A stretch of DNA of 64,000 bases from Clostridia bacterium. Lineage in GTDB: Bacteria > Bacillota > TC1 > JBAXCZ01. Numbering within the stretch: the first letter of the stretch is position 1; each line of letters begins with the position of its first letter. Shown here piece by piece: positions 6,478 to 27,579 of this stretch. The notes under the pieces are model-generated. The model ran no database searches, had not been told where the DNA came from, and worked only from the letters and a program-made list of their open reading frames with translations. The stretch covers positions 37,043 through 101,042 of the forward strand of contig JBAXCZ010000004.1 in the NCBI GenBank assembly GCA_037141195.1. The letters run 5' to 3'. The position numbers were made by a program, and so were the translations under genes.

Positions 6478-6506
6478 TTGCGAAAAATTATAGGCTATGG
6501 TAAGAT
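6478..6506 (+). promoter_or_regulatory. putative promoter of the accessory cluster
   Basis: TTGCGA at 6478-6483, a 17-nt spacer, then TAAGAT at 6501-6506. Confidence 0.35.
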
Positions 6507-6514
6507 GTAAAAAA

Positions 6515-6538
6515 TAAGTAGTACAACTAAGTAGTACA
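6515..6538 (+). promoter_or_regulatory. direct repeat TAAGTAGTACA x2, candidate GntR/HutC operator
   Basis: Identical 11-mers sit at 6515-6525 and 6528-6538. Each contains the GTA-N-TAC core typical of GntR-family sites, and both lie just downstream of the putative -10. Confidence 0.35.
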
Positions 6539-6571
6539 TTTAAGTATAGCTTAAAAATTGGAGGAACAATA

Positions 6572-7531
6572 ATGTTTAGCTTAAGTAAAGATACAGTGAA
6601 AATAGTGCAAGAAAAAATATTACCAAAAGCTGAACAATTAAATTGTGCTGTTCATAATTTAAGCAATGGCGCAACTGTTGTCGATATGGGTATTCAAGCA
6701 GGTGGTAGCTGGGAAGCGGCTCAGCTTTTTACGGAAGTTACTTTAAGTGGCATGGGAATGGTAAGCTTTGGCAGATTCAAGTTAGGAAATATTGATTTGC
6801 CCTCGGTCAATGTACATATTAGCAAACCTCAAATTGCTTGTTTATCTTCGCAATTTTCTTCTTGGAAAATCCAAGCTGACGAAGAATATGAGATTACTGG
6901 CTTGGGTTCTGGGCCTGCGCGGGCACTTGCTCAAAATGATCATATAGCGGCTTTATGGGACTATCAAGATATGAATTTTGAAACTGTTTTTGCAGCTCAG
7001 ATGAGCAGCATTCCAGATGAAGAATTTGCGGAAAACATTGCAAAAGCCTGTAAAATAAAGCCTGAGAATTTATATATTATCGCTGCTAAAACAGGCAGTA
7101 TAGTAGGATCAGTACAAATTTGTGCAAGAATGATTGAAGCATCAATGTGGAGACTAAATTATGACGGATTTGACATAAAAAAAATCATCACTGCCTCGGG
7201 TTTTGCTCCAATTGCACCTTGTGTTAATAATGAACTGCTTGCTATGAATAGGGTGAATACAGCTGTATTATATGGTGCAACAGCAAGCTATATCGTGGAT
7301 TGTGAAGATGCAGAGATTGAAAGAATTCTTAATTCTTTAGCATTTTCATCCTCCAAGTTTTATGGTCGTGAGTTTTCAGACTTGTTTGATGAAGGTAGCA
7401 GGGATATTTTTAAGATGGATATTGATGCGCATAAAGTAGCCTGCATTGAAATTAATAATTATCGTACAGGAAGAAGTTTTAAGGTGGGAAATTTAAATGA
7501 GGAAATGCTTAGTAAGGCCTTCTTTAATTAA
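6572..7531 (+). CDS. methenyltetrahydromethanopterin cyclohydrolase (Mch) family protein, paralogue 1
   Basis: A 319-aa ORF. The NGATVVDMG..AGG, LSSQFS.W, GSGPARALA and GSIVGSVQICARMIE blocks, together with the length, match archaeal Mch as I recall it. A GGAGG RBS precedes the ORF. Confidence 0.7.
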   Translation: MFSLSKDTVKIVQEKILPKAEQLNCAVHNLSNGATVVDMGIQAGGSWEAAQLFTEVTLSGMGMVSFGRFKLGNIDLPSVNVHISKPQIACLSSQFSSWKIQADEEYEITGLGSGPARALAQNDHIAALWDYQDMNFETVFAAQMSSIPDEEFAENIAKACKIKPENLYIIAAKTGSIVGSVQICARMIEASMWRLNYDGFDIKKIITASGFAPIAPCVNNELLAMNRVNTAVLYGATASYIVDCEDAEIERILNSLAFSSSKFYGREFSDLFDEGSRDIFKMDIDAHKVACIEINNYRTGRSFKVGNLNEEMLSKAFFN

Positions 7532-7592
7532 GTTAGCTAAACCAAAATTTATGCATAAAATTATTAATAGTGAATTTTGAGGAGAGAACAAG

Positions 7593-8561
7593 ATGAATAA
7601 AGAAAACCTTATCAAGCTATATAGAGATATGCAGCTAATTCGGCGTTTTGAAGAAGAAGTCGATAAATGTGCAAAAAAGGGAATCATTCCCGGTTTTATT
7701 CACCTCAGTATCGGGCAAGAAGCGGCTCAAGCAGGAATGTGTCATGTCTTAAAAAAAACAGATTTCAAGTACCCTGATCACAGAGGTCATGGCGCAATAG
7801 TTTTGTGTGGTACCGAACCAAAACTTGTAATGGCAGAGATATTCGGTAAAAAAACAGGTATTAATGGTGGTAGAGGTGGCTCTATGCATATTAATGACTT
7901 GAAATGTGGAAATCTAGGATTTAATGGAATTCAAGGATCTACTCAGGTTACCGCACTTGGGACAGCTTTTGCTTCGGTTTATAAAAATAATGATGCAGTT
8001 TCAGTCATATTCATGGGCGATGGTACATTAGGTGAAGGTGCATGTCACGAAAGCATAAACATGGCCGCAACCTGGAAATTACCTATTATCTATTGCTTAA
8101 TAAATAATCAATATGCAATTTCAACACACTATCATGAAGCTCACCCTCAAAAAGAATTAAAAACCTGGGGCGAAGGCTATGAAGTTCCATCTTTTAGAAT
8201 TGATGGTAATGACGTGGAGGCAGTTGTTGCAGCAGCAGAGATTGCAGTACAGAGAGCTCGTGATGGCATGGGACCAACTTTATTAGAATTAATGAGTTAT
8301 CGCTGGCAAGGACATTTTTCTGGAGATCCAGCCGCCTATAGACCAGATGAAGAAGTGGCGTATTGGAAGGCTAAAGATCCACTTAAGATTACCAAGGAAA
8401 GATTATTAAACCTGCATGGTGTTAGCGAAAACGATCTTCTTGTTATAGAACAAGAAGTGGAATTGATTATTAAGGATGCAGTAGAATTTTCTATTTCCAG
8501 TCCAGAACCAGATGAGCAAGATGGACTCCTATATGTCTATGCTGATATGGAGGTGCAATAA
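7593..8561 (+). CDS. TPP-dependent dehydrogenase E1 alpha subunit (AcoA/PdhA-like)
   Basis: Shows the GFIHLSIGQEA, GGRGGSMH and GDGTLGEG...NNQYAIST TPP-binding motifs. Confidence 0.85.
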   Translation: MNKENLIKLYRDMQLIRRFEEEVDKCAKKGIIPGFIHLSIGQEAAQAGMCHVLKKTDFKYPDHRGHGAIVLCGTEPKLVMAEIFGKKTGINGGRGGSMHINDLKCGNLGFNGIQGSTQVTALGTAFASVYKNNDAVSVIFMGDGTLGEGACHESINMAATWKLPIIYCLINNQYAISTHYHEAHPQKELKTWGEGYEVPSFRIDGNDVEAVVAAAEIAVQRARDGMGPTLLELMSYRWQGHFSGDPAAYRPDEEVAYWKAKDPLKITKERLLNLHGVSENDLLVIEQEVELIIKDAVEFSISSPEPDEQDGLLYVYADMEVQ

Positions 8562-8563
8562 GC

Positions 8564-9544
8564 ATGAGTGAAAGAATAATATCTTTCTCAAAAGCAATTA
8601 ACGAAGCATTGATTCAGGAAATGACACGTGATGATAAAGTTTTTATTATCGGAGAAGATGTAGGAAAAATGGGTGGAGATTTCGGTGTTACCAGCGGTAT
8701 TTGGACAAAATGGCCACATCGTGCGAAAGACACAGCACTTTCTGAATCTGCAATTATTGGTCTTTGCTGTGGTAGTGCAATTTGTGGTTTGCGACCTGTA
8801 GCAGAAATGATGTTTGCTGATTTTATTGGGGTTGCATTTGACCAAGTAGTAAATAACGCTGCTAAATTACGCTATATGTTTAATGGAGAGGTAGGAGCAC
8901 AAATTGTTATCCGCGCAGTACAGGGTGGAGGTATTCGTTGTGCTTATCATCATTCTCAATGTATAGAGCCTTGGTTTATGAACACACCAGGCTTGGTTAT
9001 TGTAGCTCCAGCAACGCCTGCAGAGGCAAAAGGTTTACTGATAGCTTCTATAAGGAGTGATAATCCAGTAATCTTTTTAGAACATAAAATGCTCTATAAT
9101 AATAAAGGTATTGTAGATGAAGCCTGTGAAGAAATGCCATTATACAAAGCTCATATTGAGTGTGAAGGTAGTGACATTACGGTAATAGCAGCCATGACTA
9201 TGTTGCCTTTAGCCTTAGAAGCTTCAAAAATATTAAAAAAAGAGGGTATATCTTTAGAGGTAATTAATCCACGCACTATTGTACCATTAGATAAAGCAAC
9301 AATTCTTGCTTCAGTTGCTAAAACTGGGAGATTAGTTATTGTGCAAGAAGGCCCTAAGGTTTTGGGCTATGCGGCAGAAATATCTGCAATGTTGGCTGAA
9401 GATTTATTTGAATATCTTAAAGCGCCAATTAAAAGAGTAACCTCAAAAGATGTGCCTATGCCATTTGCACCAAAAATGGAAGATTACGTTTTGCCGAAAA
9501 GTTCCGATGTTCTTCGCGCCTGCAGAGAAACGATGAATTTTTAG
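8564..9544 (+). CDS. TPP-dependent dehydrogenase E1 beta subunit (AcoB/PdhB-like)
   Basis: Transketolase-like pyrimidine-binding and C-terminal domains. The gene follows the alpha subunit with a 2-nt gap. Confidence 0.85.
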   Translation: MSERIISFSKAINEALIQEMTRDDKVFIIGEDVGKMGGDFGVTSGIWTKWPHRAKDTALSESAIIGLCCGSAICGLRPVAEMMFADFIGVAFDQVVNNAAKLRYMFNGEVGAQIVIRAVQGGGIRCAYHHSQCIEPWFMNTPGLVIVAPATPAEAKGLLIASIRSDNPVIFLEHKMLYNNKGIVDEACEEMPLYKAHIECEGSDITVIAAMTMLPLALEASKILKKEGISLEVINPRTIVPLDKATILASVAKTGRLVIVQEGPKVLGYAAEISAMLAEDLFEYLKAPIKRVTSKDVPMPFAPKMEDYVLPKSSDVLRACRETMNF

Positions 9545-9610
9545 AACAAAAAATGGCAGTTAGAAGTTCTAAAAATGGTGCACTTCTTTAGCAAGGGTGG
9601 TGATGATTAG

Positions 9611-10777
9611 TTGAAAGAGTTTTTGGAATTTGATGTAGTTGTAATTGGAGCTGGTGTTTGCGGCATTGCAACAGCCTTAAGTTTAGCAGAGACAGGTGCT
9701 AAGGTAGCTGTATTAGAGAAAGGAGAAATATGTTCTGGTGCATCTAGCACTAATCCTGGATTTTGTGTGCTTAGTTACAGGGAAGATGCTTACTTAATGC
9801 AACTTGCTTTGGACCAGCAAAAACAATGGGTAGAATTTGCTGCACGGATTGGCTGTGAACTGGAATATAAGCAAAAAGGCGGCTTAATTATCTTGAATAA
9901 TCAAGAAGAATCAGCTGCTTTAGAGCAGTTGATGGAGAAATGTCGAAGTTTTGGCTTGAAAGAGATTGAAATGTTAAATAGCAAAAAAACTAAATTAATT
10001 GAACCTTACATTAATGAAAAAGCTATTGTAGGCAGTGTGTATTGCCAAGCAGAAGGAATGATTAATCCGTTCAAGTTAAATATTGCAATGGCTGATTATG
10101 CAAAAAAATTAGGGGTTGAGTTTTTTCTTTGTACTCAAGTTAATGGATTTGAAAAAAATAAGCAAGAAATAACTCTGATTAAAACAAATAGAGGAAACTT
10201 TAAGTCTAGCTTAGTAGTATTAGCTGCTGGCGCTTGGACTAGTCCAATAATAGAGCTTTTGCAAGAAAAAATTCCAGTTTTTTTCGATAAAGGTGAAGCA
10301 ATGGTTAGTATGCAAGTTGATAAGTTAGTTTATCACTCGATAACTGACGGCGGGTTGTTCATCCCATCAAATGAAAAAATGGTAATTGGAGCTTGCTTGG
10401 GGCAAACGAATTCTGGAAATATTGTGTTAGCACAAGCAACCACCAAGACAAATAAATATGATACAGCATCCACACCAACGGGAATGTCTAAGGTAGCAGA
10501 AAAGGCAGTTAGCTTATTCCCAAAATTAGCAGAAATAGATATTTTGCGGATGTGGAGTGGATTAATAGCATATACACAAGATCGAAAACCGGTTTTTGGA
10601 TTTATGAATGGTATAAATAACCTGCTGATAATTGCTGGTTTCCACAGTGCTATTGGAATTTCTCCGAAAATTGGAGCATTAGTTGCAGAATATTATATGA
10701 CAGGAAAATTACAGCAAGGTGTCTTGGGGTATTCACCAAAGAGGTTTGATGTTTTGAAAAAAAATGACAGCACTTAA
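9611..10777 (+). CDS. FAD-dependent oxidoreductase, DAO family (HcnC/OoxB/SoxB-like)
   Basis: N-terminal dinucleotide fold DVVVIGAGVCG...VLEKG..CSGAS. The ORF is 388 aa and starts with TTG. Confidence 0.8.
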   Translation: MKEFLEFDVVVIGAGVCGIATALSLAETGAKVAVLEKGEICSGASSTNPGFCVLSYREDAYLMQLALDQQKQWVEFAARIGCELEYKQKGGLIILNNQEESAALEQLMEKCRSFGLKEIEMLNSKKTKLIEPYINEKAIVGSVYCQAEGMINPFKLNIAMADYAKKLGVEFFLCTQVNGFEKNKQEITLIKTNRGNFKSSLVVLAAGAWTSPIIELLQEKIPVFFDKGEAMVSMQVDKLVYHSITDGGLFIPSNEKMVIGACLGQTNSGNIVLAQATTKTNKYDTASTPTGMSKVAEKAVSLFPKLAEIDILRMWSGLIAYTQDRKPVFGFMNGINNLLIIAGFHSAIGISPKIGALVAEYYMTGKLQQGVLGYSPKRFDVLKKNDST

Positions 10778-10901
10778 AAATCTTAAGAACTAAAAAGTTA
10801 AAAAACCAAGAGTGTACCTAGAGAAATAAGCAGATAAGCAGATAATAAGTATATGAGAATAGGATGTATTTACAAGAATGAGAAATAGGGGATGTTGAGG
10901 C

Positions 10902-11711
10902 ATGAGTTTAATTGAGTATCATCCAGGAAAATCATTTATGCATAAACTAGATCCAAGAGTTAAAATATTCATGATGTCAATATTAACAATTGTGATATTT
11001 ATGGTACAAAATTTTTATGTGATAGCAGCATTGTTTATTACATTTTTAGCATTATGGAATAATGCTAAATTACCAGCTAAAAATCTCAAAAATTACTTCA
11101 TATTCATGATAGGCTTACTAGGTTTTATTATATTATTGCAAACCTTATTTTATCCAGGAAGCCATTACATCCTCAAACCTCTAATTCCGAATTTTGTACC
11201 ATTGATAGGTGGAATGGGAGCATTGAAATGGGAAGGATTTCTATTCGGTTTATTATTAGGCCTTAGATTAATAACATTAATAGTATTAATGCCATTAGTA
11301 ACCATGACAACACCAATACATTTATTAGCATTAGGGTTAGTTAGACTAGGAATGAGTTACAAAATAGCCTTTATGACAACTACAGCTATTAACCTAATTC
11401 CAACCTTTGAAAGTGAAACACAAGTAATAATGGATGCGCAAAAAATGCGAGGAATGAAAGATTTCGAAGAAGGCGGAATATTAAAAAAAATGAAAGCTTA
11501 CCCAGCATTAGTAGTTCCTTTAGTAATAGGAGCCATGAGAAGAGCTCAAATGATGGGAGTAGCCATGGATGCTAGAGCATTTGGCGCATATCAGACTAGA
11601 ACCTACATTGAAGATATAAAAATGCAAAAAAAAGATTATCTAGTAATTATTTTGATAGCCATTTATGCAGTAGCTGCAGTAGTAATAAACTATATGCTAC
11701 AAGGGAGGTAA
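10902..11711 (+). CDS. ECF transporter transmembrane T component (EcfT/CbiQ family)
   Basis: Polytopic membrane protein with the C-terminal MRRAQMMGVAMDARAFG coupling motif. Confidence 0.85.
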   Translation: MSLIEYHPGKSFMHKLDPRVKIFMMSILTIVIFMVQNFYVIAALFITFLALWNNAKLPAKNLKNYFIFMIGLLGFIILLQTLFYPGSHYILKPLIPNFVPLIGGMGALKWEGFLFGLLLGLRLITLIVLMPLVTMTTPIHLLALGLVRLGMSYKIAFMTTTAINLIPTFESETQVIMDAQKMRGMKDFEEGGILKKMKAYPALVVPLVIGAMRRAQMMGVAMDARAFGAYQTRTYIEDIKMQKKDYLVIILIAIYAVAAVVINYMLQGR

Positions 11712-11714
11712 GAA

Positions 11715-12578
11715 ATGGCAGAAGCAATGATAAAAATAGAAAATTTGAGTTATCGGTACCCAAGAACAAAGAAGTGGGTATTAAAAGATATTAGTATAGA
11801 AATTCATAAAGGTGAGTTTATTGCTATTATGGGAGAAAATGGTGCTGGCAAAACAACTTTTTGCCAATGTCTAAATGGAGTAATCCCACATTCACATGAA
11901 GGAAAACTAAAAGGTGTAGTGATTGTAGATGGAATGGTGACTGCAGAAACACCAATTTCCAAGTTAGCTGATAGCATAGGTATGGTATTAGAAGATCCAG
12001 AAACACAATTATTTACTACAATAATTAGAAACGAAGTAGCGTTTGGTCCAGAAAACCTCAACATTCCCATCGATGAAATCAAACGAAGAGTAAACTGGGC
12101 ATTAGAGGTAGTAGGACTAACGGAATATATTGATGAAGCTCCAACGGCACTATCTGGGGGGCAGAAACAAAGATTAGCTATAGCTGCTGCTTTAGCCATG
12201 TTACCTAAAGTATTAGTATTAGATGAACCAACCTCTCAACTAGACCCAATTGGTACGAGAGAAGTTTATAATGTAATCCGCGAAATCAGAGAAAAGCATG
12301 ATATTACCATCGTGATGGCAACCCATAAAAGTGAAGAAATAGCAGAATTTGCCGATAAGGTATTAGTAATCAAGGATGGCCAAGTAGCTGCATTTGATAA
12401 ACCCTGGAATATCTTTAACGATGAACAACTACTAAAAGACAATTGGATAAGACCGCCACAAGTCTCAGCATTAACCAATTACCTAAATGATCGAGGAGAA
12501 ATGTTGGAAAAATTTCCAGTTTTATTAGAGGATGCAGTAACAGAAATAATGAAGTGGTATAAAGGAGAACGAGTATGA
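11715..12578 (+). CDS. ECF transporter ATPase component A
   Basis: Walker A GENGAGKTT, signature LSGGQKQR and Walker B LVLDEPTS. Confidence 0.9.
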   Translation: MAEAMIKIENLSYRYPRTKKWVLKDISIEIHKGEFIAIMGENGAGKTTFCQCLNGVIPHSHEGKLKGVVIVDGMVTAETPISKLADSIGMVLEDPETQLFTTIIRNEVAFGPENLNIPIDEIKRRVNWALEVVGLTEYIDEAPTALSGGQKQRLAIAAALAMLPKVLVLDEPTSQLDPIGTREVYNVIREIREKHDITIVMATHKSEEIAEFADKVLVIKDGQVAAFDKPWNIFNDEQLLKDNWIRPPQVSALTNYLNDRGEMLEKFPVLLEDAVTEIMKWYKGERV

Positions 12579-13405
12579 AGAGCGTTGTCTTGAAAATCGA
12601 TGATTTAAGCTATAAATATAGCACTGGGAGCACGGCCTTAGAGCATATAAATATAGAAATTTATGAAAACGAATTTGTGGCAATTATTGGTCAGAATGGA
12701 GCAGGCAAATCCACCCTGCTAAAGAATATTACTGGGTTATTAACACCAACAGTAGGAAATACATATGTAAATGGAAGAAATACAAAAGATCTCACCGTAT
12801 CAAAAATAGCTATGGAAATAGGGTTTGTCTTACAGAATCCTGATCGACAATTATTTGCTGAAACAGTAGAAGAAGAAGTAGCTTATGGACTAAAAAATGC
12901 AAAGTTACCAGCAGATTTAATAGAACAGAAGGTGGTAGAATCACTAACTGCAGTTGGCTTACAAGATAAAAGGAAAGAATTTCCACCAGCATTAAGTAAA
13001 GGAGATAGAGCAAAAGTAGTAATTGCCTCTGTAATTGCTATGGGGGCAAAGATCATAATATTAGATGAGCCAACAAGTGGTCAAGATTATCGGGGCTGTT
13101 ATCAAATTATGAACATAGCGAAGGAATTACATAAAATGGGAAGAACAATAGTTTTTGTTACCCATAATATGTCCTTAGTAGCAGAGTATGCCAAGCGAAT
13201 CATCGTAATGTCTAGAAAAAGAGTGATGATGGATAGCGATGCAGAAGATGTTTTTAGCCAGCCAGAAAAATTAGCAACCACCAATATAACACCTCCGCAA
13301 ATAACTTTATTAGCAAGTAAACTGCAGGAATTCATACCCATAAAAAAGACGGTGCTTTTTATAGATGAGCTTGGCGATGAATTACTCGTGCTTCATAGAA
13401 AGTAG
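12575..13405 (+). CDS. ECF transporter ATPase component A'
   Basis: Walker A GQNGAGKST and Walker B IILDEPTSGQD. The start overlaps the upstream stop by 4 nt. Confidence 0.9.
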   Translation: MKSVVLKIDDLSYKYSTGSTALEHINIEIYENEFVAIIGQNGAGKSTLLKNITGLLTPTVGNTYVNGRNTKDLTVSKIAMEIGFVLQNPDRQLFAETVEEEVAYGLKNAKLPADLIEQKVVESLTAVGLQDKRKEFPPALSKGDRAKVVIASVIAMGAKIIILDEPTSGQDYRGCYQIMNIAKELHKMGRTIVFVTHNMSLVAEYAKRIIVMSRKRVMMDSDAEDVFSQPEKLATTNITPPQITLLASKLQEFIPIKKTVLFIDELGDELLVLHRK

Positions 13406-13412
13406 GCGATGT

Positions 13413-14198: not shown

Positions 14199-14220
14199 AA
14201 AATTTCAAGGGGGCAAGAAG

Positions 14221-14961: not shown

Positions 14962-14987
14962 AAATATAGTTAGCAATTAATTAGGAG

Positions 14988-15051
14988 GGAGTTGCATGCT
15001 CTTTAGTTTACAAAAAAAGTAACCTAGAAATTGTGTGCAGCTCCTTTTTTT
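14988..15051 (+). terminator. weak terminator-like hairpin with a large loop
   Basis: GGAGTTGCA pairs with TGCAGCTCC across a 39-nt loop, followed by T7. Confidence 0.3.
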
Positions 15052-15077
15052 AATTCGATCGCAAAGAGGAGTAGATA

Positions 15078-16476: not shown

Positions 16477-16486
16477 GGGTGACTGC

Positions 16487-18298: not shown

Positions 18299-18310
18299 GA
18301 GCTGATCAAT

Positions 18311-18730: not shown

Positions 18731-18731
18731 A

Positions 18732-19535: not shown

Positions 19536-19545
19536 GGTGTTAATT

Positions 19546-20100: not shown

Positions 20101-20156
20101 ATGAGGAATAAATAGCTAACTTAATATAAATTTGATAAATTGGAAGGAGCTTGACT

Positions 20157-21119
20157 ATGTTTAGTATCAACCAAGAGGCAGTAAGAATAGTTAAAGAGAA
20201 AATAATTCCTAATGTGGAAATGCTCAATTGCAAGTTACATTTATTGAAAAATGGGGCAACAGTTATAGATATGGGAGTAGAAATGCCTGGCGGATTTCTT
20301 GCCGGAAAATTATTTGTTGAAGCAACAATTGGTGGTATGGGTCATGTGGATTTTGGTAGATTTCAGTGTGGTGCTATTGATTTACCATCGATAGATGTAT
20401 ATATTGATCAACCACAGACAGCAACATTATCATCGCAATTCTCTGGTTGGAAAATGCCGGGAAAAAATTTAGATGGCTGGATTAATCCAATTGGTTCTGG
20501 ACCAGCAAGGGCAATTGCGAAGAATGATATTTTTGCTCAAAGTTGGAGCTATCAAGATCAGCATCATGAAACTGTTTTTGCCGCACAAACAGTAGAGCTA
20601 CCCGACGAAGAAATGGCAGAAATTATTGCCAAAGCATGTAAAATATCAGCATGTAATGTATATATTTTAGCAGCACGCACAGGGAGCCTAACAGGTTCAA
20701 TTCAAGTTTGTTCTCGTACGGTAGAGGCTTCAACATGGAGAATTTGTCGTAAAGGATTTGATATAGCTAAGATTATTAGTGGCATGGGTACTTGCCCAAT
20801 AGCTCCACCAATAAAAGATGAATTAAGGGCAATGGATAGAGTAAACACAGCATTATTATATGGAGTAACCGTGCGTTATTTAGTAGACTGTGCTGATTTA
20901 GAAATAACAAGTATAATTGAACAATTACCATTCAATGCCTCAAAAAGATATGGAGAAGAATTTATCGACTTATTCGAAGAAGGAAAACGCGATTTTTATA
21001 TAGTCGATAAGGATATCCACACAGTAGCTCGATATGAGATTACCAACATCGCCACAGGTAATACATTTAAGGCTGGAGTGCTCAGGGAAGATCTACTAGA
21101 AAAATCTTTGTTTCACTAG
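20157..21119 (+). CDS. methenyltetrahydromethanopterin cyclohydrolase (Mch) family protein, paralogue 2
   Basis: Collinear with the 6572 ORF at roughly half identical residues by eye: NGATVIDMG, LSSQFSGW, GSGPARAIA and GSIQVCSRTVE. The ATG at 20157 follows a GGAAGGAG RBS. Confidence 0.7.
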   Translation: MFSINQEAVRIVKEKIIPNVEMLNCKLHLLKNGATVIDMGVEMPGGFLAGKLFVEATIGGMGHVDFGRFQCGAIDLPSIDVYIDQPQTATLSSQFSGWKMPGKNLDGWINPIGSGPARAIAKNDIFAQSWSYQDQHHETVFAAQTVELPDEEMAEIIAKACKISACNVYILAARTGSLTGSIQVCSRTVEASTWRICRKGFDIAKIISGMGTCPIAPPIKDELRAMDRVNTALLYGVTVRYLVDCADLEITSIIEQLPFNASKRYGEEFIDLFEEGKRDFYIVDKDIHTVARYEITNIATGNTFKAGVLREDLLEKSLFH

Positions 21120-21150
21120 ATTCAAAGGATAAGCTAAGGATGGTAGAAGC

Positions 21151-22290
21151 ATGGAAAAAACTAGAGTTCTAATTATAGGTGGAGGCATATTAGGAGCAAC
21201 TACAAGCTATTATTTAGCAAAGCAAGGTTATGCAGTTACAGTGCTAGAAAAAAATGAGCTAGCTTCAGGAGCCTCAGGTGCTAATCTAGGGCAAATTTCT
21301 ATTATAGATAGAGATGAACCCTGGCACCTTAAATTAGCATTAGAATCTCTAACTATATATGAAAACTTAAATCGAGAAACGCCCATAGCATATAAACAGT
21401 CTGGCGGGACAGTTGTCTTAATTAATGAAGAACAGGTAGAAGCAGCCAAACTTATGGCAGCGTATTTAGCTGCATATGGCATAGAGATTAGTTTTTATCA
21501 AGGTAAAGATATGCTGCGAATTGAACCATTTCTTGATTATACGAAAGTGCAAAGCCTAGCTTACTGTGCCCTAGAAGGAAAAATTGACCCTCTTGCAGCA
21601 ACCCTTACATTTTTTTCTAAGGCTAAAGAGCTTGGGGTAGAGATATTCACTAATACTTGTGTGGATAGTTTTGAGGTGGAAAATGGTAAAATTACGAAAG
21701 CTATTGCTAAGGAAAAAGAATATTTTGCAGATATTTTTATTAATGCAACTGGTGCCTGGGCAGGAGGCATAGGAGAACTTCTATGTCTAAAAATACCAAT
21801 TTGTTATCATCGTGGAACAGCTTTTGTTTCTCAACCTATAGCAAGTGTAATAAATGGGCCTGTTGTAGGTGGTGGTTTCATTTTGAAAAGTAGACTTGCT
21901 AGCGAAAAATTGAGAATTGGCTTGGCAGCAGTGCAAAATACCAATGGTAGTATCATCATAGCGCAAGCTACTGAAGAAAGCGAAGTTGATAGTAAAGAAA
22001 TAACAGCACAGGGGCTAACCTTAACGGCAGAAAAATTTATCACATATTTTCCAGCTCTAGCAGAATTGGAAATTGTCCGCGCATGGTCAGCAGTAACTCC
22101 ATACACAAAAGATGGGTTGCCTATATTTGGCTTTACTAAAAGCATCCAAAATTTCTTTGTAGTTGCTGGATTTAAGGGTGCCTTCTCAACTGCTCCAGCT
22201 GTTGGAAAAGCAGTGGCAAGAGCAATCAAGACAGGAATTGCCTATGAAAACAATAGTTTTTCTCCTGACAGAGAAATGCTGGAAAGCTAA
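21151..22290 (+). CDS. FAD-dependent oxidoreductase, DAO family, second copy
   Basis: RVLIIGGGILG...VLEKN..ASGASG dinucleotide fold. The ORF is 379 aa. Confidence 0.8.
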   Translation: MEKTRVLIIGGGILGATTSYYLAKQGYAVTVLEKNELASGASGANLGQISIIDRDEPWHLKLALESLTIYENLNRETPIAYKQSGGTVVLINEEQVEAAKLMAAYLAAYGIEISFYQGKDMLRIEPFLDYTKVQSLAYCALEGKIDPLAATLTFFSKAKELGVEIFTNTCVDSFEVENGKITKAIAKEKEYFADIFINATGAWAGGIGELLCLKIPICYHRGTAFVSQPIASVINGPVVGGGFILKSRLASEKLRIGLAAVQNTNGSIIIAQATEESEVDSKEITAQGLTLTAEKFITYFPALAELEIVRAWSAVTPYTKDGLPIFGFTKSIQNFFVVAGFKGAFSTAPAVGKAVARAIKTGIAYENNSFSPDREMLES

Positions 22291-22387
22291 AGCTCTTGCC
22301 TTGACAGCTAATATAAAAAAACATCTAGCAAAGACAATAAAATATTGAACTTAAACCGTTGCTTAAAGTGAGAGGTGAGTACACCAA

Positions 22388-24526
22388 TTGAATATCATAC
22401 CTGAAGATTATATAGAAAAAGTTTATGCTGGCTGGCTAGGAAAACTGATTGGAATACGGCATGGAGCTCCTATAGAAGGGTGGACCTATGAAAAAATAAA
22501 GAGAGTACACGGTACAATAACAGATTATCTAGTAGACTACAATGATTTTGCTGCTGATGATGACAGTAATGGACCTGTATTTTTTCTGAGAGCATTAGAA
22601 GATTATGATTATACACTCAAACTCACACCTGAGCAAATTGGTTTGACTTGGCTAAACTATGCACCATATGAACATGGTTTTTATTGGTGGGGAGGCTACG
22701 GAAAATCCACCGAACACACAGCATATTTGAATATGCGTAATGGTATCATGGCTCCAAAATCAGGTTCTATCCAGCAAAATGGGGTAACAGTAGCCGAGCA
22801 GATAGGTGGTCAAATTTTTATCGATACTTGGGGACTAGTAGCACCAGCTAATCCAAAACTTGCGGCAGCATATGCCAGAAAAGCAGCAAGTGTATCACAT
22901 GATGGAAATGGTATATTTGGTGGGATGTTTATTGCAGCATGTATAAGTGCGGCCTTTATTCAAGAAAATATCAAAGACATATTAGAAAGTGGCTTTTCTG
23001 TAATTCCGGCAGATTGCGATTATACATTAGTTATGCGTAGTGTTATGAGTTTTCACGAAAAATATCCAGAAGACTGGGAAAAATGTTTTAATTTTATTGA
23101 TGCTAATTATGGCTATGATAAATATCCAGGCAACTGTCATATAATTCCCAACGGAGCAGTTATGATTCTCGCGCTGCTATATGGTGAAAAAGATTTTACT
23201 AACTCCATTAACATCTGCAACATGTGTGGTTGGGATACGGATTGTAATGTAGCCAACATAGGCACGATATTAGGCGTGGCAAATGGCATCATCGGTCTTG
23301 ATTATAATAAGTGGCGAAAGCCCATTAATGATTTTTTTATATGCTCAAGCGTTATTGGCTCGCTAAATATCCAAGATGCGCCACAATTTACTACCTACAT
23401 CGCAAAATGGGGATATAAAATTGCGGGGCAAGAGCCGGAGAATAAATGGAAAAAAATATTATTTGGGGGCGCAGCAAGATTCCACTTCCAGCTTCCTGGT
23501 TCGACACATGGGTTTAGAGTAGCATCAGATTCGCTAACAAAACTGGAATATGCTCTGGTAAATACAAATATAGCAAACATGAATCTAAATGGATCACTTA
23601 AGGTCTCAGTGAACGGAATTGCTGCAGGGGAAGACTTTCGTATCTTCACAAAAACATATTATCGGCCTGAAGATTTTCATGATAGTAGGTATGATCCGTC
23701 TTTTTCGCCTGTTCTTTATCCAGGACAAAGCATCTCAGCTATGGTTATGCTACCTGAATGGTTAGAAAAATCTGAAATACTTGTTAGCATGTATGTGAAA
23801 GATGGGAATTACAACAAATATTTCGATTCAGAAAAAACCTTGCTGACAAGGGGAAAATGGAATCTATTAAATTTTAAGCTACCAAATATGGAGGGTGCTT
23901 GCTTAGAAGAGGCAGGCATAAGAGTAACTGTAAAATCAAATCAGAGGTTTTTGGATAATTCTCTAGTTATATATATTGCTAACTTGGATTTTTCAGGTAA
24001 GCCTAACTATACAATTGATTTTTCCAAAGAGCGGATGGAGTTTTGGAACGGATTACATCAGGAGGTAAGCCAGTTTACTTATCTCAAAGGAAACTGGGAA
24101 CTTGTAGATGATGAATTAGTTGGCAGCGCCTGTGATTTTGGAGAAGCATATACAGGGTCTTATGATTGGGAAGATTATACATTTGAGGCAACCTTAATAC
24201 CAGTAACTGGAGAATCTCATTATATGAATTTCCGAGTGCAAGGAGCAATTCGTTCATATGCATTTGGATTGGAATCAGATGGTAAGGCAATGCTTCGCAA
24301 GAACAACAACGGGTATTCAAAGCTAAGTGGAATAGACTTTGCATGGGAATACAATCATGAATACAGGTTTAGAGCTGAGGTAAAGTATAATTCAATCAGA
24401 ATATGGCATGAAAATATTCTGCTTGTTGAGTATTTTGATAATGATAACCCTTATCTCCAAGGCCAAATTGGTTTTTCTGTGTATAATGGAAGTCGTTGTA
24501 AGTTTAAGGAGTTGAGCATTTATTGA
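22388..24526 (+). CDS. ADP-ribosylglycohydrolase-family domain fused to a C-terminal DUF1080/LamG-like jelly-roll domain
   Basis: N-terminal GWLGKLIGIRHGAPIEG and GWDTDCNVANIGTILG motifs of the ARH family. The C-terminal region of about 200 aa resembles 3-keto-disaccharide hydrolase/DUF1080. The TTG start lies 8 nt after a GAGAGGTGAG RBS. Confidence 0.7.
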   Translation: MNIIPEDYIEKVYAGWLGKLIGIRHGAPIEGWTYEKIKRVHGTITDYLVDYNDFAADDDSNGPVFFLRALEDYDYTLKLTPEQIGLTWLNYAPYEHGFYWWGGYGKSTEHTAYLNMRNGIMAPKSGSIQQNGVTVAEQIGGQIFIDTWGLVAPANPKLAAAYARKAASVSHDGNGIFGGMFIAACISAAFIQENIKDILESGFSVIPADCDYTLVMRSVMSFHEKYPEDWEKCFNFIDANYGYDKYPGNCHIIPNGAVMILALLYGEKDFTNSINICNMCGWDTDCNVANIGTILGVANGIIGLDYNKWRKPINDFFICSSVIGSLNIQDAPQFTTYIAKWGYKIAGQEPENKWKKILFGGAARFHFQLPGSTHGFRVASDSLTKLEYALVNTNIANMNLNGSLKVSVNGIAAGEDFRIFTKTYYRPEDFHDSRYDPSFSPVLYPGQSISAMVMLPEWLEKSEILVSMYVKDGNYNKYFDSEKTLLTRGKWNLLNFKLPNMEGACLEEAGIRVTVKSNQRFLDNSLVIYIANLDFSGKPNYTIDFSKERMEFWNGLHQEVSQFTYLKGNWELVDDELVGSACDFGEAYTGSYDWEDYTFEATLIPVTGESHYMNFRVQGAIRSYAFGLESDGKAMLRKNNNGYSKLSGIDFAWEYNHEYRFRAEVKYNSIRIWHENILLVEYFDNDNPYLQGQIGFSVYNGSRCKFKELSIY

Positions 24527-24615
24527 TGGTTTATCAGTCTTGTAAGCAAAAACACTCTGAACAATCGTAGCAGATAGTAAAGTAAGCATAACAACTAAGG
24601 AAAAAAGGAGAAGCT

Positions 24616-24639
24616 ATGAAAATTGCCATTAACCCATAG
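24616..24639 (+). CDS. 7-codon upstream mini-ORF (MKIAINP)
   Basis: A strong AAGGAG RBS lies 6 nt upstream. The stop is 12 nt before the main ATG, which has no RBS of its own. Confidence 0.25.
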   Translation: MKIAINP

Positions 24640-24651
24640 CTGAGTGTATAT

Positions 24652-25623
24652 ATGCGAGTAGCTATATTATTTAACCCTAACGCAGGTGGTAATAGTCACT
24701 ATACTAATATTGGAAAGATTTTGGGAGAACGATTAAAAGGCTGTAAAATAAAAACATACCCAGGACTTTATGGTCAAACATATATAGAAAATGCTGAAAT
24801 TGTCTCAAGGGTGAATGCTACTGGAGATTACCTTAAAGATCTTTATTCTATAATAATGGAGGTTATCAAAACAAATCCTGAGCTTTTAGTTTGTGTGGGC
24901 GGTGATGGGTTTTTAGCATATATAGCAGATGCAATGATTAGAAACAACATCAAGATTCCACTGCTAGGGATAGCGGGAGGAACTGCAAATGTAGGACCGC
25001 TGATCAATTTTACAGCTGCCAGCTTAATGAGGCTTGATTTAGCTAAAATCAAATTGTCACCAGTCGGTGCTTTGGAAGTAGCCCTTAATAAGAGTATCAA
25101 AGGATACGCTTTTAATGATGTGATAATTGGAAATACTTTTCTTGGGATGCTAAATGAACAAATGTCCAATATTGGTGTAGAAACCTTTATACAAACTGGA
25201 ATTAAAAAAAAGCTAGCACCGTCAACAGATATTGTGCTAGACTATTTTCAGATTGCAAAAAACGAGTTAACATTGCAGTTTAACATGAAAAAGCCTGCTC
25301 AAATTGTAATATCTCCAATTGAAGGAAAAAATTATCTAGGAAAAGCGATAACTGGTTTATTATGTCATGCAACTTTGACAAAAAGTAAAGCGGCATTAGC
25401 ATTACTTGACCGAGTAATAGTAAGCATGGAATCTGAGAACAAAGACAATGAGCTGATGTCGATTGAACAGCTGATTTTTACGGAAGAAGATAAGCTAAGT
25501 ATTTCAGGACTTTCTCGGAATGGTCATGTGATAATTGACGGAAATCCATTTATCAGACAAGCTAAAGAAGCGGTGAATATCAGGTGCATTGCAAATGCCG
25601 TTATTGGTGTTAATATGCTTTAG
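24652..25623 (+). CDS. NAD kinase / diacylglycerol kinase catalytic-fold protein (AcoX-like)
   Basis: VCVGGDGF and GIAGGTAN motifs of the ATP-NAD kinase fold. The ORF is 323 aa. Confidence 0.6.
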   Translation: MRVAILFNPNAGGNSHYTNIGKILGERLKGCKIKTYPGLYGQTYIENAEIVSRVNATGDYLKDLYSIIMEVIKTNPELLVCVGGDGFLAYIADAMIRNNIKIPLLGIAGGTANVGPLINFTAASLMRLDLAKIKLSPVGALEVALNKSIKGYAFNDVIIGNTFLGMLNEQMSNIGVETFIQTGIKKKLAPSTDIVLDYFQIAKNELTLQFNMKKPAQIVISPIEGKNYLGKAITGLLCHATLTKSKAALALLDRVIVSMESENKDNELMSIEQLIFTEEDKLSISGLSRNGHVIIDGNPFIRQAKEAVNIRCIANAVIGVNML

Positions 25624-25792
25624 ACTAGCTCAATAAATCATAATAAATTGTTACTATTAAAAGTAGATATATTAAGTATAAATTGAAGATATTAAGTGGA
25701 CAAATGCTAGTTGTGTAAAGATTTTAGTAGAGTTATAAACTAAAAAGATATGATTTTAATACTTTAACTTGCACTTCAGGGGGAAATATTGC

Positions 25793-26710
25793 ATGCCAAG
25801 GATAACCGTAATAGGCAGCTTAAATATGGATATGGTGATAACTACGCCTAAGATACCAGTAATTGGAGAAACTGTTTTGGGAAGCGGATTTGCGATGTTT
25901 CCTGGTGGTAAAGGTGCAAACCAAGCAGTTGCGGCAGCAAGACTCGGTGGTGATGTGACCATGATTGGGTGTGTGTGTGAAGATTTTTTCGGAAAAGAAT
26001 TAATTAGTAATCTTGCTAATAATGGAGTAAATATTTCACATATTCAGAAAACAGATAATTGTGCTACAGGTGTTGCGATGATAGTCGTTAAAGACGGCGA
26101 CAACCTAATTATTGTTGATCCAGGAGCTAATAGTAAACTTGAGGAGCAACAAATTCAAAATATGGAATTGATCATTGCAGAAAGTAAAATGCTTATTATA
26201 CAATTAGAAATACCTCAAAAAACTGTATTGAAAGCAATGCAATTAGCAAGAAAACATAATGTGCAAGTACTCTTAAATCCTGCACCTGCTAGTAAACTTA
26301 GCGATGAATTGTTAGCCTTAGTGGATATTTGCACTCCAAATGAAACTGAATGTGAAATCCTTACTGGGATAACTATCAAGCAAATAAAGGATGCAGAAAA
26401 AGCCGTGCGCTACTTAAATAAAAAAGACATACCAATAGTAATTGTGACAATGGGAGCAAAAGGCGTAGTATACAATCAAGGAGATAAAATTGTTCATAAG
26501 AAGGCAACTAGGGTTAGGGCAGTGGATACAACTGGGGCAGGTGATGCTTTTTCCGGCGCAATTGCTGTAGCATTAACTCAAGGGGTAGCTTTAGCTGATG
26601 CAATAGATTTTGCGAGTATGGTAGGAGCCATAACAGTTACTAAGAGGGGCGCGCAAGCTTCCTTTCCGAGTATTGAGGAAGTAAGAGCTTTTAAGGCAGA
26701 AATAATATAA
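25793..26710 (+). CDS. rbsK: ribokinase
   Basis: GGKGANQAVAAARLG and DTTGAGDAFSGA PfkB/ribokinase signatures. The ATG at 25793 follows an AGGGGGAAA RBS. Confidence 0.85.
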   Translation: MPRITVIGSLNMDMVITTPKIPVIGETVLGSGFAMFPGGKGANQAVAAARLGGDVTMIGCVCEDFFGKELISNLANNGVNISHIQKTDNCATGVAMIVVKDGDNLIIVDPGANSKLEEQQIQNMELIIAESKMLIIQLEIPQKTVLKAMQLARKHNVQVLLNPAPASKLSDELLALVDICTPNETECEILTGITIKQIKDAEKAVRYLNKKDIPIVIVTMGAKGVVYNQGDKIVHKKATRVRAVDTTGAGDAFSGAIAVALTQGVALADAIDFASMVGAITVTKRGAQASFPSIEEVRAFKAEII

Positions 26711-26844
26711 TGTGTGAATTGAAATCTTTCATTTATAGATTAATTCTTTGAATTTAATTACTTATTATTTATGAAGATACAACTTAAAATTGCCAATAGT
26801 TGTTTATTTAGGATCTGTGATAAGCTAGAGCATGACAAGAGAGG

Positions 26845-27579
26845 GTGAAGAGTTTGAAAAAAGAAAGCTTATTCTTACAAAAGAAAAAAGAACTATATCA
26901 ATATATTAAGACACAGAAGTTTGCAGGAGGGAAATTGCCTACAGAAGAAATTTTTGCTGAGCAATTTGGGATTTCTCGAAACATGCTTAGAGAACTTATG
27001 CGGGATTTAGAACGAGAAGGGTATCTGAGCAAGCAACAAGGATTGGGAAATTTTGTACATACAAGTGCCTTAAATAAGAAGATGAGAATTGATTTAATTA
27101 ATGATTTTTCTATGATGTTAACTGAAGCAGGCATGAATGTCAGCTATAATAGGTTGGAGGCAAGTGAAAGAGATATTGAAAACATGTATATGCTGCAAAA
27201 AGATTTTCCGAATTACAAAATTGAAGATTTTTTTCTTGAAGGGCGCATGTATTTAATTGATCAGATACCAGGAATATATAGCATGATTTATATTCCTAAG
27301 GATATCATGTTGTTAGAGACAGGTGCAGAAAAGCGAGCAGAAGCTAAAGGATTTTTCGAATATTTAGACCTTTACTGTAATCAAAAGATTGAACAGATGA
27401 TTATTGACTTTGATGTATTATCTGCAGATGAATGGTTAGCTGATAAAATGCAACTAAAACTTCATGCGCCAGTTATGCAATGGTATGAAATTTATTATAA
27501 TTTTTTTGATGAAGCAGTTTGTGCATCTATAAGTTACTTTAATCCACAAATAATAAAATTTAGCATGTTAAGAAAATAG
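26845..27579 (+). CDS. GntR-family transcriptional regulator, HutC/UTRA-like
   Basis: N-terminal winged helix LPTEEIFAEQFGISRNMLRELMRDLEREGYL. The start is uncertain: GTG at 26845 or TTG at 26854. Confidence 0.75.
   Translation: MKSLKKESLFLQKKKELYQYIKTQKFAGGKLPTEEIFAEQFGISRNMLRELMRDLEREGYLSKQQGLGNFVHTSALNKKMRIDLINDFSMMLTEAGMNVSYNRLEASERDIENMYMLQKDFPNYKIEDFFLEGRMYLIDQIPGIYSMIYIPKDIMLLETGAEKRAEAKGFFEYLDLYCNQKIEQMIIDFDVLSADEWLADKMQLKLHAPVMQWYEIYYNFFDEAVCASISYFNPQIIKFSMLRK

Follow-up and report, generated by a model that had tools for sequence, protein, structure and literature searches.

A composite gene island with duplicated Mch-family cyclohydrolases in a Clostridia bacterium probably serves breakdown of a purine- or pterin-like nitrogen ring

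The cyclohydrolase Mch converts a cyclic N-CH=N+ group, such as that of methenyl-tetrahydromethanopterin (methenyl-H4MPT), to an N-formyl group, and to our knowledge textbooks place it only in methanogenesis, in the anaerobic oxidation of methane and in methylotrophy that depends on H4MPT. The COG0402 amidohydrolases convert amidines and amino-heteroaromatic compounds to oxo compounds and ammonia. The clostridial xanthinase (Rabinowitz) fermentation of purines is hydrolytic and ends in formimino, methenyl and formyl one-carbon (C1) units on a pterin; it reportedly consists of five hydrolases plus a prenyl-FMN decarboxylase. Genes of the first two families stand together in the subject of this report, an island at 6572-27579 of a 64-kb stretch of Clostridia bacterium contig JBAXCZ010000004.1 (the window, meaning the whole stretch that was analyzed), and the protein families and gene associations of the island's core point to a probable role in the breakdown of a nitrogen ring like that of purines or pterins. 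Other pathways described earlier are the reductive uric-acid/2,8-dioxopurine pathway, which uses XdhD, YgfK, SsnA, HyuA, YgeY, YgeW, YqeA and YgeX (PMC12507026; bioRxiv 10.1101/2025.04.24.650524), and an aerobic pterin/lumazine pathway, which uses quite different enzymes (PMC12391406). H4MPT/methanofuran genes have been noted earlier in genomes of Firmicutes and Chloroflexi (PMC5020050).

The island comprises 22 consecutive co-directional open reading frames (ORFs) on the forward strand (Table 1), one more than the 21 counted in the original prediction, which was made from the sequence without database searches. Scans of the ORFs with Pfam and NCBIfam hidden Markov models reproduced all family assignments of that prediction, including Mch, the pterin-binding protein and the ADP-ribosylglycohydrolase (ARH). 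Its view that the gene set matches no characterized pathway also stands, as the uric-acid and the aerobic pterin/lumazine pathways use other enzymes; no characterized pathway with this gene set was found in the literature, and the xanthinase pathway is set apart by the enzymes reported for it. The idea of a single unit of 21 genes, on the other hand, was not borne out. Comparison with 10 loci from species-representative genomes and 80 from metagenomes, supplemented by the annotated contexts of selected homologs, splits the cluster into three modules of differing distribution. Block I runs from EcfT to DAO2 (10902-22290), block II consists of Mch1, E1α, E1β and DAO1 (6572-10777), and block III of the ARH fusion, a DAGK-like protein, ribokinase and a GntR regulator (22388-27579). 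ORFs of the related loci were called by a simple script, clustered and mapped; the caller misbehaves in high-GC loci.

Relatives of block I come from metagenome loci of Bacillota, of Chloroflexi and of other anaerobes. The close syntenic ones, in Bacillota metagenome-assembled genomes (MAGs) and bioreactor contigs (L014, L019, L035/L053 and L025), are 74-79% identical for Mch2, 54-65% for the parts of the energy-coupling factor (ECF) importer, 54-70% for the Fer2_4, Pyr_redox_2 and BFD proteins, 37-60% for the COG0402 protein, 43% for the CE4 protein and 43-49% for DAO2. In five Chloroflexi-type contigs (L016, L023, L037, L061 and L063) Mch2 is ~75% identical, a Bmp-type ATP-binding cassette (ABC) importer replaces the ECF importer, and a gene for a Mer-like protein is added. 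Block II has relatives in Christensenellaceae, Oscillospiraceae, Lachnospiraceae and others (L003-L005, L051, L065, L072). Many of the related loci derive from bioreactor, sediment and fermentation metagenomes, and since the blocks are syntenic in many unrelated metagenome or MAG loci, the arrangement exceeds chance. By these comparisons the region is a composite, putatively catabolic island of three separately recurring modules, and its conserved core (blocks I and II) is a predicted set of Mch, a COG0402 amidohydrolase, DAO proteins with Fe-S partners, a CE4 protein, a MeTr-like pterin binder and an importer.

Gene association was counted in the 19 loci from the window's Mch clade with flanks of 4 kb or more on both sides; these loci are not phylogenetically independent, and the following counts are indicative only: a COG0402 amidohydrolase is present in 89% (as direct neighbor of Mch in nine loci) and a DAO protein in 79% (direct neighbor in eight), followed by Bmp-type ABC importers (58%), Fer2_4 (53%), Pyr_redox_2 and CE4 (47% each), the MeTr-like pterin binder (37%), Mer-like proteins (32%), ECF importers (26%), XDH (21%) and the E1αβ pair (16%). 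Widening the set to 40 bacterial loci, each 9 kb or longer, gave 15 with XDH, dihydropyrimidinase or PreA/YgfK-like genes, 13 with a further pterin-C1 family, and eight with at least two Mch genes (the maximum is four, in L065).

The two Mch proteins share full-length homology with the canonical enzymes of methanogens, Archaeoglobus and methylotrophs (PDB 1QLM, 4GVQ/4GVS, 4FIO), and the alignment of Mch1 to M. kandleri Mch spans the full protein (1QLM, E = 3e-62). The SGPARA loop (S113-A118), R186 and E189 are invariant in 26 sequences including archaeal Mch, Q182 is likewise invariant, and R186 and E189 match the catalytic pair of A. fulgidus, R183 and E186. Conservation of 90% or more in 32 canonical, Fwd/Ftr-linked Mch proteins picks out 74 alignment columns; the window's clade keeps 46 of them, and the other 28 are changed. 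Substitutions such as E143Q and F287H (numbered as in Mch1) are fixed in all bacterial groups and may point to an altered specificity. Mch2 is 71-79% identical to Mch proteins of L014, L016, L019, L025, L031 and other loci across phyla, and the bacterial clade is 35-38% identical to archaeal Mch and ~30% identical to that of the single planctomycete locus recovered. The sole close relative of Mch1 (77% identical) lies in L101, where a COG0402 gene comes next after it. Two to four Mch paralogs are present per locus in L004, L005, L021, L045 and L065, and several ring substrates therefore fit better than one C1 carrier.

In L065, a bioreactor contig, the four paralogs belong to three subgroups and lie around an E1α-E1β-E2 set and a short-chain dehydrogenase/reductase gene (5651-12695). 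A public metagenome protein, P0081, in which Mch appears joined to DAO, was considered as a Rosetta-stone fusion and rejected; it loses Mch similarity ~40 residues ahead of the DAO Rossmann motif and probably reflects a frameshift in a gene called at the end of a contig.

Unlike canonical mch genes, those of the window are duplicated and lie with COG0402, DAO, CE4 and importer genes and not with Ftr, Mtd, Mer or Fwd. The usual H4MPT/methanofuran company of Mch (Ftr/Fhc, Mtd, Mer, Fae) was not found in the 64-kb window by tblastn and Pfam/NCBIfam scans, and tblastn detected no Ftr, FhcA-like or Mer-like gene there. The locus might be thought to encode a canonical, methylotroph-like H4MPT-dependent oxidation or detoxification of formaldehyde that merely lies beside unrelated amidohydrolase genes. 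The equivalog-level Mch scores, the Fhc-like genes of some relatives and the report of such genes in Firmicutes (PMC5020050) all agree with this, but it is hardly credible here, given that Fae, MtdB, Fhc and the genes of H4MPT biosynthesis are missing from the scanned parts of the window, that the Mch genes are duplicated, and that their synteny with deaminase, DAO, CE4 and importer genes is kept across phyla.

The COG0402 protein of the island (AH1) had been thought a possible pterin deaminase; both profile and PDB matches instead place it closest to the 5'-methylthioadenosine/S-adenosylhomocysteine (MTA/SAH) and 5'-deoxyadenosine deaminases. It keeps the HxH, HxxE, His and Asp residues of these enzymes (H81/H83, H239-E242 and D327 align with 4F0R), and its specificity loop is changed: in the W..WPxE loop a 7-aa insertion replaces the Glu, and no Glu is conserved there among Mch-linked orthologs. 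This Glu binds the ribose diol, a role reported from work on TM0936. The loop bears on one of the substrates suggested earlier, a cationic methylated purine nucleoside. Here Mch would open the imidazolium or amidinium ring of an m7G- or m1A-type (7-methylguanosine or 1-methyladenosine) compound, the CE4 protein would deformylate the product, DAO would move the N-methyl group onto folate, and ARH and ribokinase would recover the ribose. Mch chemistry suits cationic formamidinium rings, AH1 is akin to adenosine-type deaminases, relatives carry nucleoside-type importers, and a ribokinase gene adjoins. With the ribose-binding Glu of the MTA/SAH deaminases not conserved in AH1, the ARH/ribokinase block outside the conserved module, and no feature specific to methylated bases, this idea is nonetheless very doubtful.

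The CE4 protein reads TFDG(A)P where the canonical motif is TFDDG (the second Asp is lost), keeps HSYSH and RPP, and has no signal peptide. All 18 CE4 proteins of Mch loci (a few are fragments) belong to one short cytoplasmic subfamily with (T/S)FDG(A/S)P, and the gene adjoins Mch across phyla, in an Acidimicrobiales locus (L015) as well as in L021, L025, L027 and L038. This protein may be a deformylase, the role proposed for it here. The HutF/HutG branch of histidine utilization, taken together with FolD, is a parallel in logic only, as it too leads from a formamidine by way of an N-formyl group to formate; HutF, itself of COG0402, is among the weaker matches of AH1, whereas the enzymes for ring opening (Mch) and deformylation (CE4) differ. 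A further putative hydrolase or decarboxylase, of the Amidohydro_2 family, has 3CJP, a "dihydroorotase-family amidohydrolase", as its top PDB match (E = 3e-27); its gene is embedded in the ECF operon, a position that is kept in L014.

The top NCBIfam models for DAO1 are ThiO and SoxB, all under cut-off, and DAO1 is 45-47% identical to Mch-adjacent DAO proteins in L003-L005, L042, L045 and L046. DAO2, which is paired with Mch2, is matched best in the PDB by 1Y56_B (E = 1e-37); this is the beta subunit of Pyrococcus L-proline dehydrogenase, whose substrate is a cyclic secondary amine. The top PDB matches of the Pyr_redox_2 protein are the N-terminal part of sarcosine oxidase alpha and 1Y56_A. 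The DAO-type catalytic subunit and the Pyr_redox_2/2Fe-2S partner that SoxAB/HcnABC/PDH1-type enzymes require are thus both present. Sarcosine oxidase, HcnABC and the Pyrococcus dehydrogenase (1Y56, 2GAG) resemble the island's proteins in the DAO subunit and the SoxA-like N-terminal parts. In contrast to SoxA, the window's alpha subunit is split into three genes and lacks the folate-binding GCV_T domain, which Pfam did not match in any ORF of the cluster; unlike sarcosine oxidase, the window has a separate MeTr-like binder and a 2x[4Fe-4S] protein and no SoxD/SoxG. Orthologs of this ferredoxin-like protein in L014 and L055 are 43-45% identical. The thiamine pyrophosphate (TPP)-dependent E1 proteins, the beta member of which passes the pyruvate dehydrogenase E1 beta subfamily model NF006667, are 61-68% identical to Mch-adjacent E1 proteins in L004, L051, L065 and L072, where the pair comes with E2, E3 and lipoate ligase.

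Genes for T, A, A' and S stand in one operon, the criterion for a group I ECF importer, with junctions of -4 to 22 bp. EcfT, EcfA and EcfA' are 57-65% identical, and EcfS is 54-63% identical, to their counterparts in L014, L019, L035 and L053; EcfS has no NCBIfam match and no PDB sequence match. The original prediction had argued from this ECF importer for vitamin-type import. The four ECF components are indeed present, and the argument is weakened by the Bmp-type ABC importers of 58% of the flanked relatives. Characterized members of the Bmp type bind nucleosides.

The importer is one ground for supposing that the island dismantles a cofactor, an imported C1-loaded reduced pterin such as folate or methanopterin from methanogen necromass. 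Mch, DAO, the pterin binder and CE4 would unload the C1 unit, an amine dehydrogenase would cut the C-N10 bond, E1 would remove an acetyl-type side chain, the deaminase would attack the pterin, and ARH and the kinases would handle the alpha-ribofuranosyl-ribitol tail. The deaminase, as said, is nearest to adenosine-analog and not pterin deaminases, most relatives have the nucleoside-type Bmp importers, and the ARH/DAGK-like module is independent of Mch and common in Paenibacillus-type genomes, all of which makes such dismantling improbable. It draws on the vitamin-type class of the ECF importer, on the up to four pterin-related families in these loci, on the closer relation of bacterial Mch to archaeal (35-38%) than to planctomycete (~30%, one locus) Mch, on the bioreactor, sediment and fermentation origin of many loci, and on ARH, a family that cleaves alpha-ribofuranosyl bonds and is matched here by fold; the purine genes nearby are compatible with it, since known pterin degradation feeds into xanthine (PMC12391406). 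That the ECF importer specifically takes up a methanopterin-type cofactor released by methanogens, either as a borrowed C1 carrier or to dismantle it, is decidedly improbable, and it is just as improbable that the archaeal-derived Mch paralogs, DAO-type dehydrogenases, deformylase, TPP enzyme and alpha-ribofuranosidase are the tools for such a use. If it were true, one domain of life would be pirating or recycling a cofactor of another, and methanopterin would have its first described catabolic fate.

On its 3' side the window has two other gene sets, for nucleosides and nucleobases. A nucleoside operon at 32952-41302 has DeoR (minus strand), DeoC, a Bmp binding protein, an ABC ATPase, two BPD_transp_2 permeases, cytidine deaminase and pyrimidine-nucleoside phosphorylase. 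Three tRNA genes come next at 41366-41809, Pro-GGG (minus strand), His-GTG and Lys-TTT (both plus strand), and beyond them lie a nicotinate-phosphoribosyltransferase-like ORF of 470 aa (41865-43277) and the gene of a DeaD-type helicase. A second catabolic cluster, at 47197-58926, holds the same families as the reductive uric-acid/2,8-dioxopurine pathway (PMC12507026): dihydropyrimidinase and carbamate kinase (both above cut-off), an OTCase-family carbamoyltransferase that falls between OTC (ornithine carbamoyltransferase) and YgeW, an SsnA-like COG0402 protein, XdhA-like large, FAD (medium) and 2Fe-2S (small) subunits, and an 876-aa PreA/GltD/YgfK-like fusion; YgeX and YgeY homologs were not identified among the scanned ORFs. 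From these nucleoside and purine gene sets the organism appears to be a nucleoside and purine fermenter. The island thus lies in a nucleobase-catabolic neighborhood, as do its relatives in L003-L006, L013 and L042.

The island itself is not one of the known purine pathways. No homologs of XdhD, YgfK, SsnA, HyuA, YgeW or YqeA lie within 6478-27579, and the cluster has no UbiD-type decarboxylase to match the prenyl-FMN decarboxylase reported for the xanthinase pathway; both pathways were rejected as identities for it because their defining enzymes are absent from that interval. The reductive uric-acid pathway resembles the route proposed below in its anaerobic reduction of a purine ring followed by stepwise hydrolysis, and its families lie 20 kb downstream of the island in the window and beside Mch in the six loci just named. 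It differs in having no Mch, DAO/HcnAB-like, CE4 or pterin-binding component, and its ring carbons exit as ureido or carbamoyl groups and not as formyl groups (PMC12507026). Of the substrates suggested in the original prediction, intermediates of purine fermentation gain most from this context.

The four activities first read from the gene content (hydrolysis of cyclic amidines or amides, oxidation of secondary or tertiary amines, pterin-based handling of C1 units, and cleavage of a ribosyl bond with later phosphorylation of the ribose) are reasonable predictions for these families. What Mch, COG0402 and CE4 share is a predicted chemistry of formamidines and formamides. The reading preferred here, put forward tentatively as one that may prove right, is that the core carries out a reductive and hydrolytic degradation of the purine type in which Mch opens cyclic formamidines and the CE4 protein frees formate. 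A purine-type base or nucleoside would be imported (by ECF here, by a Bmp-type ABC importer in most relatives), and the COG0402 enzyme would strip the exocyclic amine. The flavin/Fe-S complex, linked to NAD(P) or ferredoxin, resembles oxidizing enzymes of cyclic or N-methyl secondary amines and in an anaerobe might as readily work reductively; it would alter the oxidation state of the ring, either by reducing C4=C5 or by oxidizing an N-CH2-N group or cyclic amine to N-CH=N; in L003, L005 and L042, which have the gene order AH1, PreA-like, Mch, a PreA/YgfK-like reductase could dearomatize the ring instead. The product would be a non-aromatic cyclic formamidine of the imidazoline or tetrahydropyrimidine type, the chemical counterpart of the methenyl-H4MPT imidazolinium ring, and C4=C5 reduction of a purine with C2-H and/or C8-H would leave one or two such formamidines. 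Mch2 would hydrolyze one ring carbon to an N-formyl group, and Mch1 would do likewise on the second formamidine carbon. The formyl group would be freed as formate by CE4 (by Ftr/Fhc-like enzymes elsewhere) or handed to the pterin-binding protein. Amidohydro_2 would open or decarboxylate the remaining ring, and DAO1 and E1αβ would turn the leftover three-carbon amino-acid skeleton, via a 2-oxo acid, into an acyl unit.

A purine-type route would explain the adjacency of Mch and deaminase, the multiple Mch paralogs, their altered positions, the purine context and the nucleoside-type importers. The genes do belong to these families, keep their catalytic residues, and are associated in a conserved manner across loci; from this we infer the substrate and the order and direction of the reactions. 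Several things weigh against such a route. Mch1 and Mch2 both exceed the TIGR03120 equivalog cut-off (228.8 bits), the specificity loop of AH1 departs from all characterized relatives, and the flavin/Fe-S complex may run reductively or oxidatively. Homologs of E2, E3 and LplA are absent from the 64-kb window, related loci hold Mer-like (32%), MeTr-like (37%) and Ftr/Fhc-like families, and the association counts carry the limit of phylogenetic dependence given with them above.

We know of no biology in which the Mer, MeTr and Ftr/Fhc families act other than on pterin-bound C1 units. The MeTr/AcsE-like protein of the island matches methyl-tetrahydrofolate:corrinoid methyltransferases in the PDB (4O0Q, 2YCI and 1F6Y, at E ~1e-28), and among the Pfam matches of the cluster's ORFs there is no B12-binding domain that could belong to a corrinoid partner. 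For the Mer-like luciferase-family protein of the related loci, Mer is the top model by far (180 bits; cut-off 276). These proteins suggest a different course, the main rival of the preferred reading, in which an N-heterocycle or nucleoside would be imported and the DAO/HcnAB-like proteins would move an N-methyl or other C1 unit from it to a tetrahydropterin. The carrier, tetrahydrofolate or H4MPT-like, would be held by the MeTr-like protein; Mer-like or DAO proteins would oxidize the unit to methenyl, Mch would make formyl from methenyl, and CE4, or Ftr/Fhc elsewhere, would free formate. The Mch pair passes the TIGR03120 cut-off with its catalytic residues kept, and the Mer-like gene adjoins the MeTr-like gene in all five of the Chloroflexi-type contigs, in the order DAO, pterin binder, Mer-like, DAO. 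In L051 the neighborhood of Mch has Ftr, FhcA/B/C-like and ATP-grasp genes, and in L004 and L048 it has FhcA-like and ATP-grasp genes; in these loci the Fhc-like genes appear to take the place of CE4, and H4MPT/methanofuran genes are known in Firmicutes and Chloroflexi (PMC5020050). This C1 course is still rather unlikely: a carrier role needs one Mch and the loci carry two to four, the tightly paired COG0402 deaminase has no role on the carrier, 28 of the 74 canonical conserved positions are changed, the 64-kb window is without Mer, Ftr and Fhc, and no Mtd/FolD-type dehydrogenase or Fae is found among the annotated neighbor families (unclustered single ORFs were not scanned).

The Fhc-like genes deserve a separate description. 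L051 (13904-19902), and similarly L004 and L048, has FhcA-like (Amidohydro_3) and FhcC-like (GXGXG) genes and an ATP-grasp gene of the RimK type next to Mch, E1/E2 and XDH; L051 adds Ftr (PF01913/PF02741), another ATP-grasp gene and an ORF weakly like FhcB, and the fetched stretches of L004 and L048 contain no Ftr. They form a formyltransferase/hydrolase-like module in anaerobic Firmicutes (Clostridia-type contigs).

H4MPT-type genes as such are already known in Firmicutes (PMC5020050). New here is a tight module of Mch, COG0402, DAO, CE4 and importer genes, 71-79% conserved across phyla, with purine genes for company, and its gene set fits none of the reductive uric-acid pathway, the xanthinase pathway (as reported), the aerobic pterin/lumazine pathway and the H4MPT modules of the methylotroph type. 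If Mch acts on reduced purine-type rings, the preferred reading, this would be a fourth anaerobic route of the purine type, without molybdenum or selenium hydroxylases, and would bear on urate and purine turnover in the gut and on the nitrogen cycle of digesters and sediments. Should pterin-bound C1 units be the substrate of Mch instead, this would be the first physiological role for the H4MPT-type genes of Firmicutes and Chloroflexi. The module is a well-defined target that comes down to a pair of soluble enzymes, a single binding protein, and a repressor for which there is a candidate operator.

Block III stands apart from this core. The ARH fusion (AlphaFold model pLDDT 86.7) had been described as an ADP-ribosylglycohydrolase joined to DUF1080; for the second part the PF06439 match is sub-threshold (E = 0.02), and precomputed matches of homologs, the AlphaFold model and a CBM66 fold match speak for it. 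In Foldseek searches the ARH domain matches MJ1187, ARH3 and DraG (target-normalized TM ~0.7) and the last domain matches CBM66 (target-normalized TM ~0.8). The acidic metal-site motifs D57-D59 and D283-T284-D285 are invariant in 26 homologs. ARH3, DraG and MJ1187 have the N-terminal fold and the acidic motifs in common with the window protein, which differs from them in being a 712-aa cytoplasmic fusion with two beta-sandwich domains and in belonging to a family mainly found in sugar operons. That family has more than 7,600 members, with 55-67% identity in Caldanaerobius, Clostridium thermosuccinogenes, Paenibacillus and Neobacillus, and in the contexts examined it lies with sugar-ABC, GH172, GH20, ROK and PfkB genes and never beside Mch. 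The DAGK-like protein is from a small family of ~120 homolog clusters, all named "hypothetical", whose neighbors include GntR, DeoC, an NCS1 permease, alcohol dehydrogenase (ADH), sugar ABC, ARH and GlpA-like genes. PDB sequence searches with the ARH fusion and the DAGK-like protein gave nothing usable.

ARH enzymes cleave alpha-ribofuranosyl bonds, and N-ribosyl cleavage had been proposed as part of what the whole cluster does. This is not supported: the families of block III recur in sugar-ABC/glycoside hydrolase/kinase operons without Mch, and the fusion has domains resembling carbohydrate-binding modules (CBM), so the link to a ribosylated heterocycle is one of adjacency only. From its distribution block III is an independent module, predicted to act on a ribofuranoside or sugar-type substrate, that would at most free the base from a ribosylated form. 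A conserved cluster around the DAGK-like kinase family is present in L102 (3420-16723) and L103 (5028-19211). It consists of GntR/UTRA, DeoC, NCS1 permease, Zn-ADH, the DAGK-like kinase, sugar ABC and AP_endonuc_2 genes, together with genes for a 335-aa ARH protein, and a GlpA-like DAO+BFD protein with Pyr_redox_2 and DUF1667.

Table 1. Features of the island and its upstream region in the 64-kb window
Feature	Block	Position	Strand	Profile match or basis
6S RNA		6179-6355		Rfam, 59.9 bits
Promoter-like site 5' of Mch1		6478-6506	+	TTGCGA, 17-nt spacer, TAAGAT; consensus match only
Tandem repeat TAAGTAGTACA		6515-6538	+	Two exact copies 13 bp apart; candidate operator
Mch1	II	6572-7531	+	PF02289, 329 bits; TIGR03120, 285.5 bits
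E1 alpha, TPP-dependent	II	7593-8561	+	PF00676; pyruvate dehydrogenase E1-alpha models under cut-offs
E1 beta	II	8564-9544	+	PF02779, PF02780; NF006667, 331 bits (cut-off 321)
DAO1	II	9623-10777	+	PF01266, 201 bits; start codon from public gene call
EcfT	I	10902-11711	+	CbiQ
EcfA	I	11715-12578	+	ABC_tran; ECF_ATPase_1/ECF_ATPase_2 top models for A/A'
EcfA'	I	12575-13405	+	ABC_tran
Amidohydro_2 metal hydrolase or decarboxylase	I	13413-14198	+	PF04909, E = 6.5e-19
EcfS	I	14221-14961	+	PF07155, weak, 40 bits
HcnA-like 2Fe-2S protein (Fer2_4)	I	15078-15398	+	Pfam
HcnB/SoxA-N-like Pyr_redox_2 flavoprotein	I	15391-16476	+	soxA model, 164 bits over positions 169-484
BFD/SO_alpha_A3 protein	I	16487-16771	+	Pfam
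COG0402 deaminase-type amidohydrolase (AH1)	I	16895-18298	+	PF01979, 223 bits
Ferredoxin-like 2x[4Fe-4S] protein, C-terminal extension	I	18311-18730	+	Fer4 family matches
MeTr/AcsE-like Pterin_bind TIM barrel	I	18717-19535	+	PF00809; NF005719, 206 bits (cut-off 259)
CE4 deacylase, short, cytoplasmic	I	19537-20100	+	PF01522, 105 bits; 187 aa
Mch2	I	20151-21119	+	PF02289, 334 bits; TIGR03120, 270.5 bits
DAO2, paired with Mch2	I	21151-22290	+	PF01266, 203 bits
ARH-fold glycohydrolase with two beta-sandwich CBM-like domains	III	22388-24526	+	PF03747, E = 5e-49; 712 aa
DAGK_cat/NAD-kinase-fold protein	III	24652-25623	+	PF00781, 27.6 bits (cut-off 23.6)
Ribokinase	III	25769-26710	+	TIGR02152, 369.7 bits (cut-off 299.65); PfkB
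GntR/HutC-type regulator with UTRA	III	26845-27579	+	PF00392, PF07702

The position of this same-strand gene run between two housekeeping blocks was confirmed by the ORF listing, profile scans and Rfam. According to Pfam and NCBIfam the 5' flank consists of a class-V aminotransferase, recA, recX, rny, a 175-aa ORF and ymdB, and the 3' flank of alaS, ireB and ruvX. GC content of the island is the same as that of its flanks, with no compositional sign of recent transfer. The junctions, described earlier as short or overlapping, are so only within sub-blocks; gaps of 116-124 bp precede the EcfT, Fer2_4 and COG0402 genes, and the last four genes are each set apart by gaps of 97-145 bp. The terminator scan found no intergenic terminator within the cluster, and consensus promoter and terminator scans for operon boundaries gave counts at or under shuffle expectation.

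A long perfect hairpin terminator (~6382-6428) follows the 6S RNA gene, directly 5' of the island's promoter-like site, and the near-consensus promoter at 6149-6176 goes with the 6S RNA. Between the promoter-like site and the ribosome-binding site of Mch1 lies the tandem repeat TAAGTAGTACA, whose only exact copies in the 64-kb window are these two; it is a candidate operator. An operator common to block III and blocks I/II was sought and rejected, as the intergenic regions have no shared motif and TAAGTAGTACA is present only 5' of Mch1. At Rfam gathering thresholds the window has the 6S RNA and three tRNAs and no riboswitch, and an Rfam scan of seven related loci gave no matches. GntR/UTRA genes like that at the end of the island are also found at four Mch loci (L014, L025, L031 and L054), and they also accompany ARH/DAGK-like loci. 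The 175-aa ORF between rny and ymdB (4798-5325) has no Pfam match even at E <= 5 and is kept in both other public contigs that have this region (L011 and L012).

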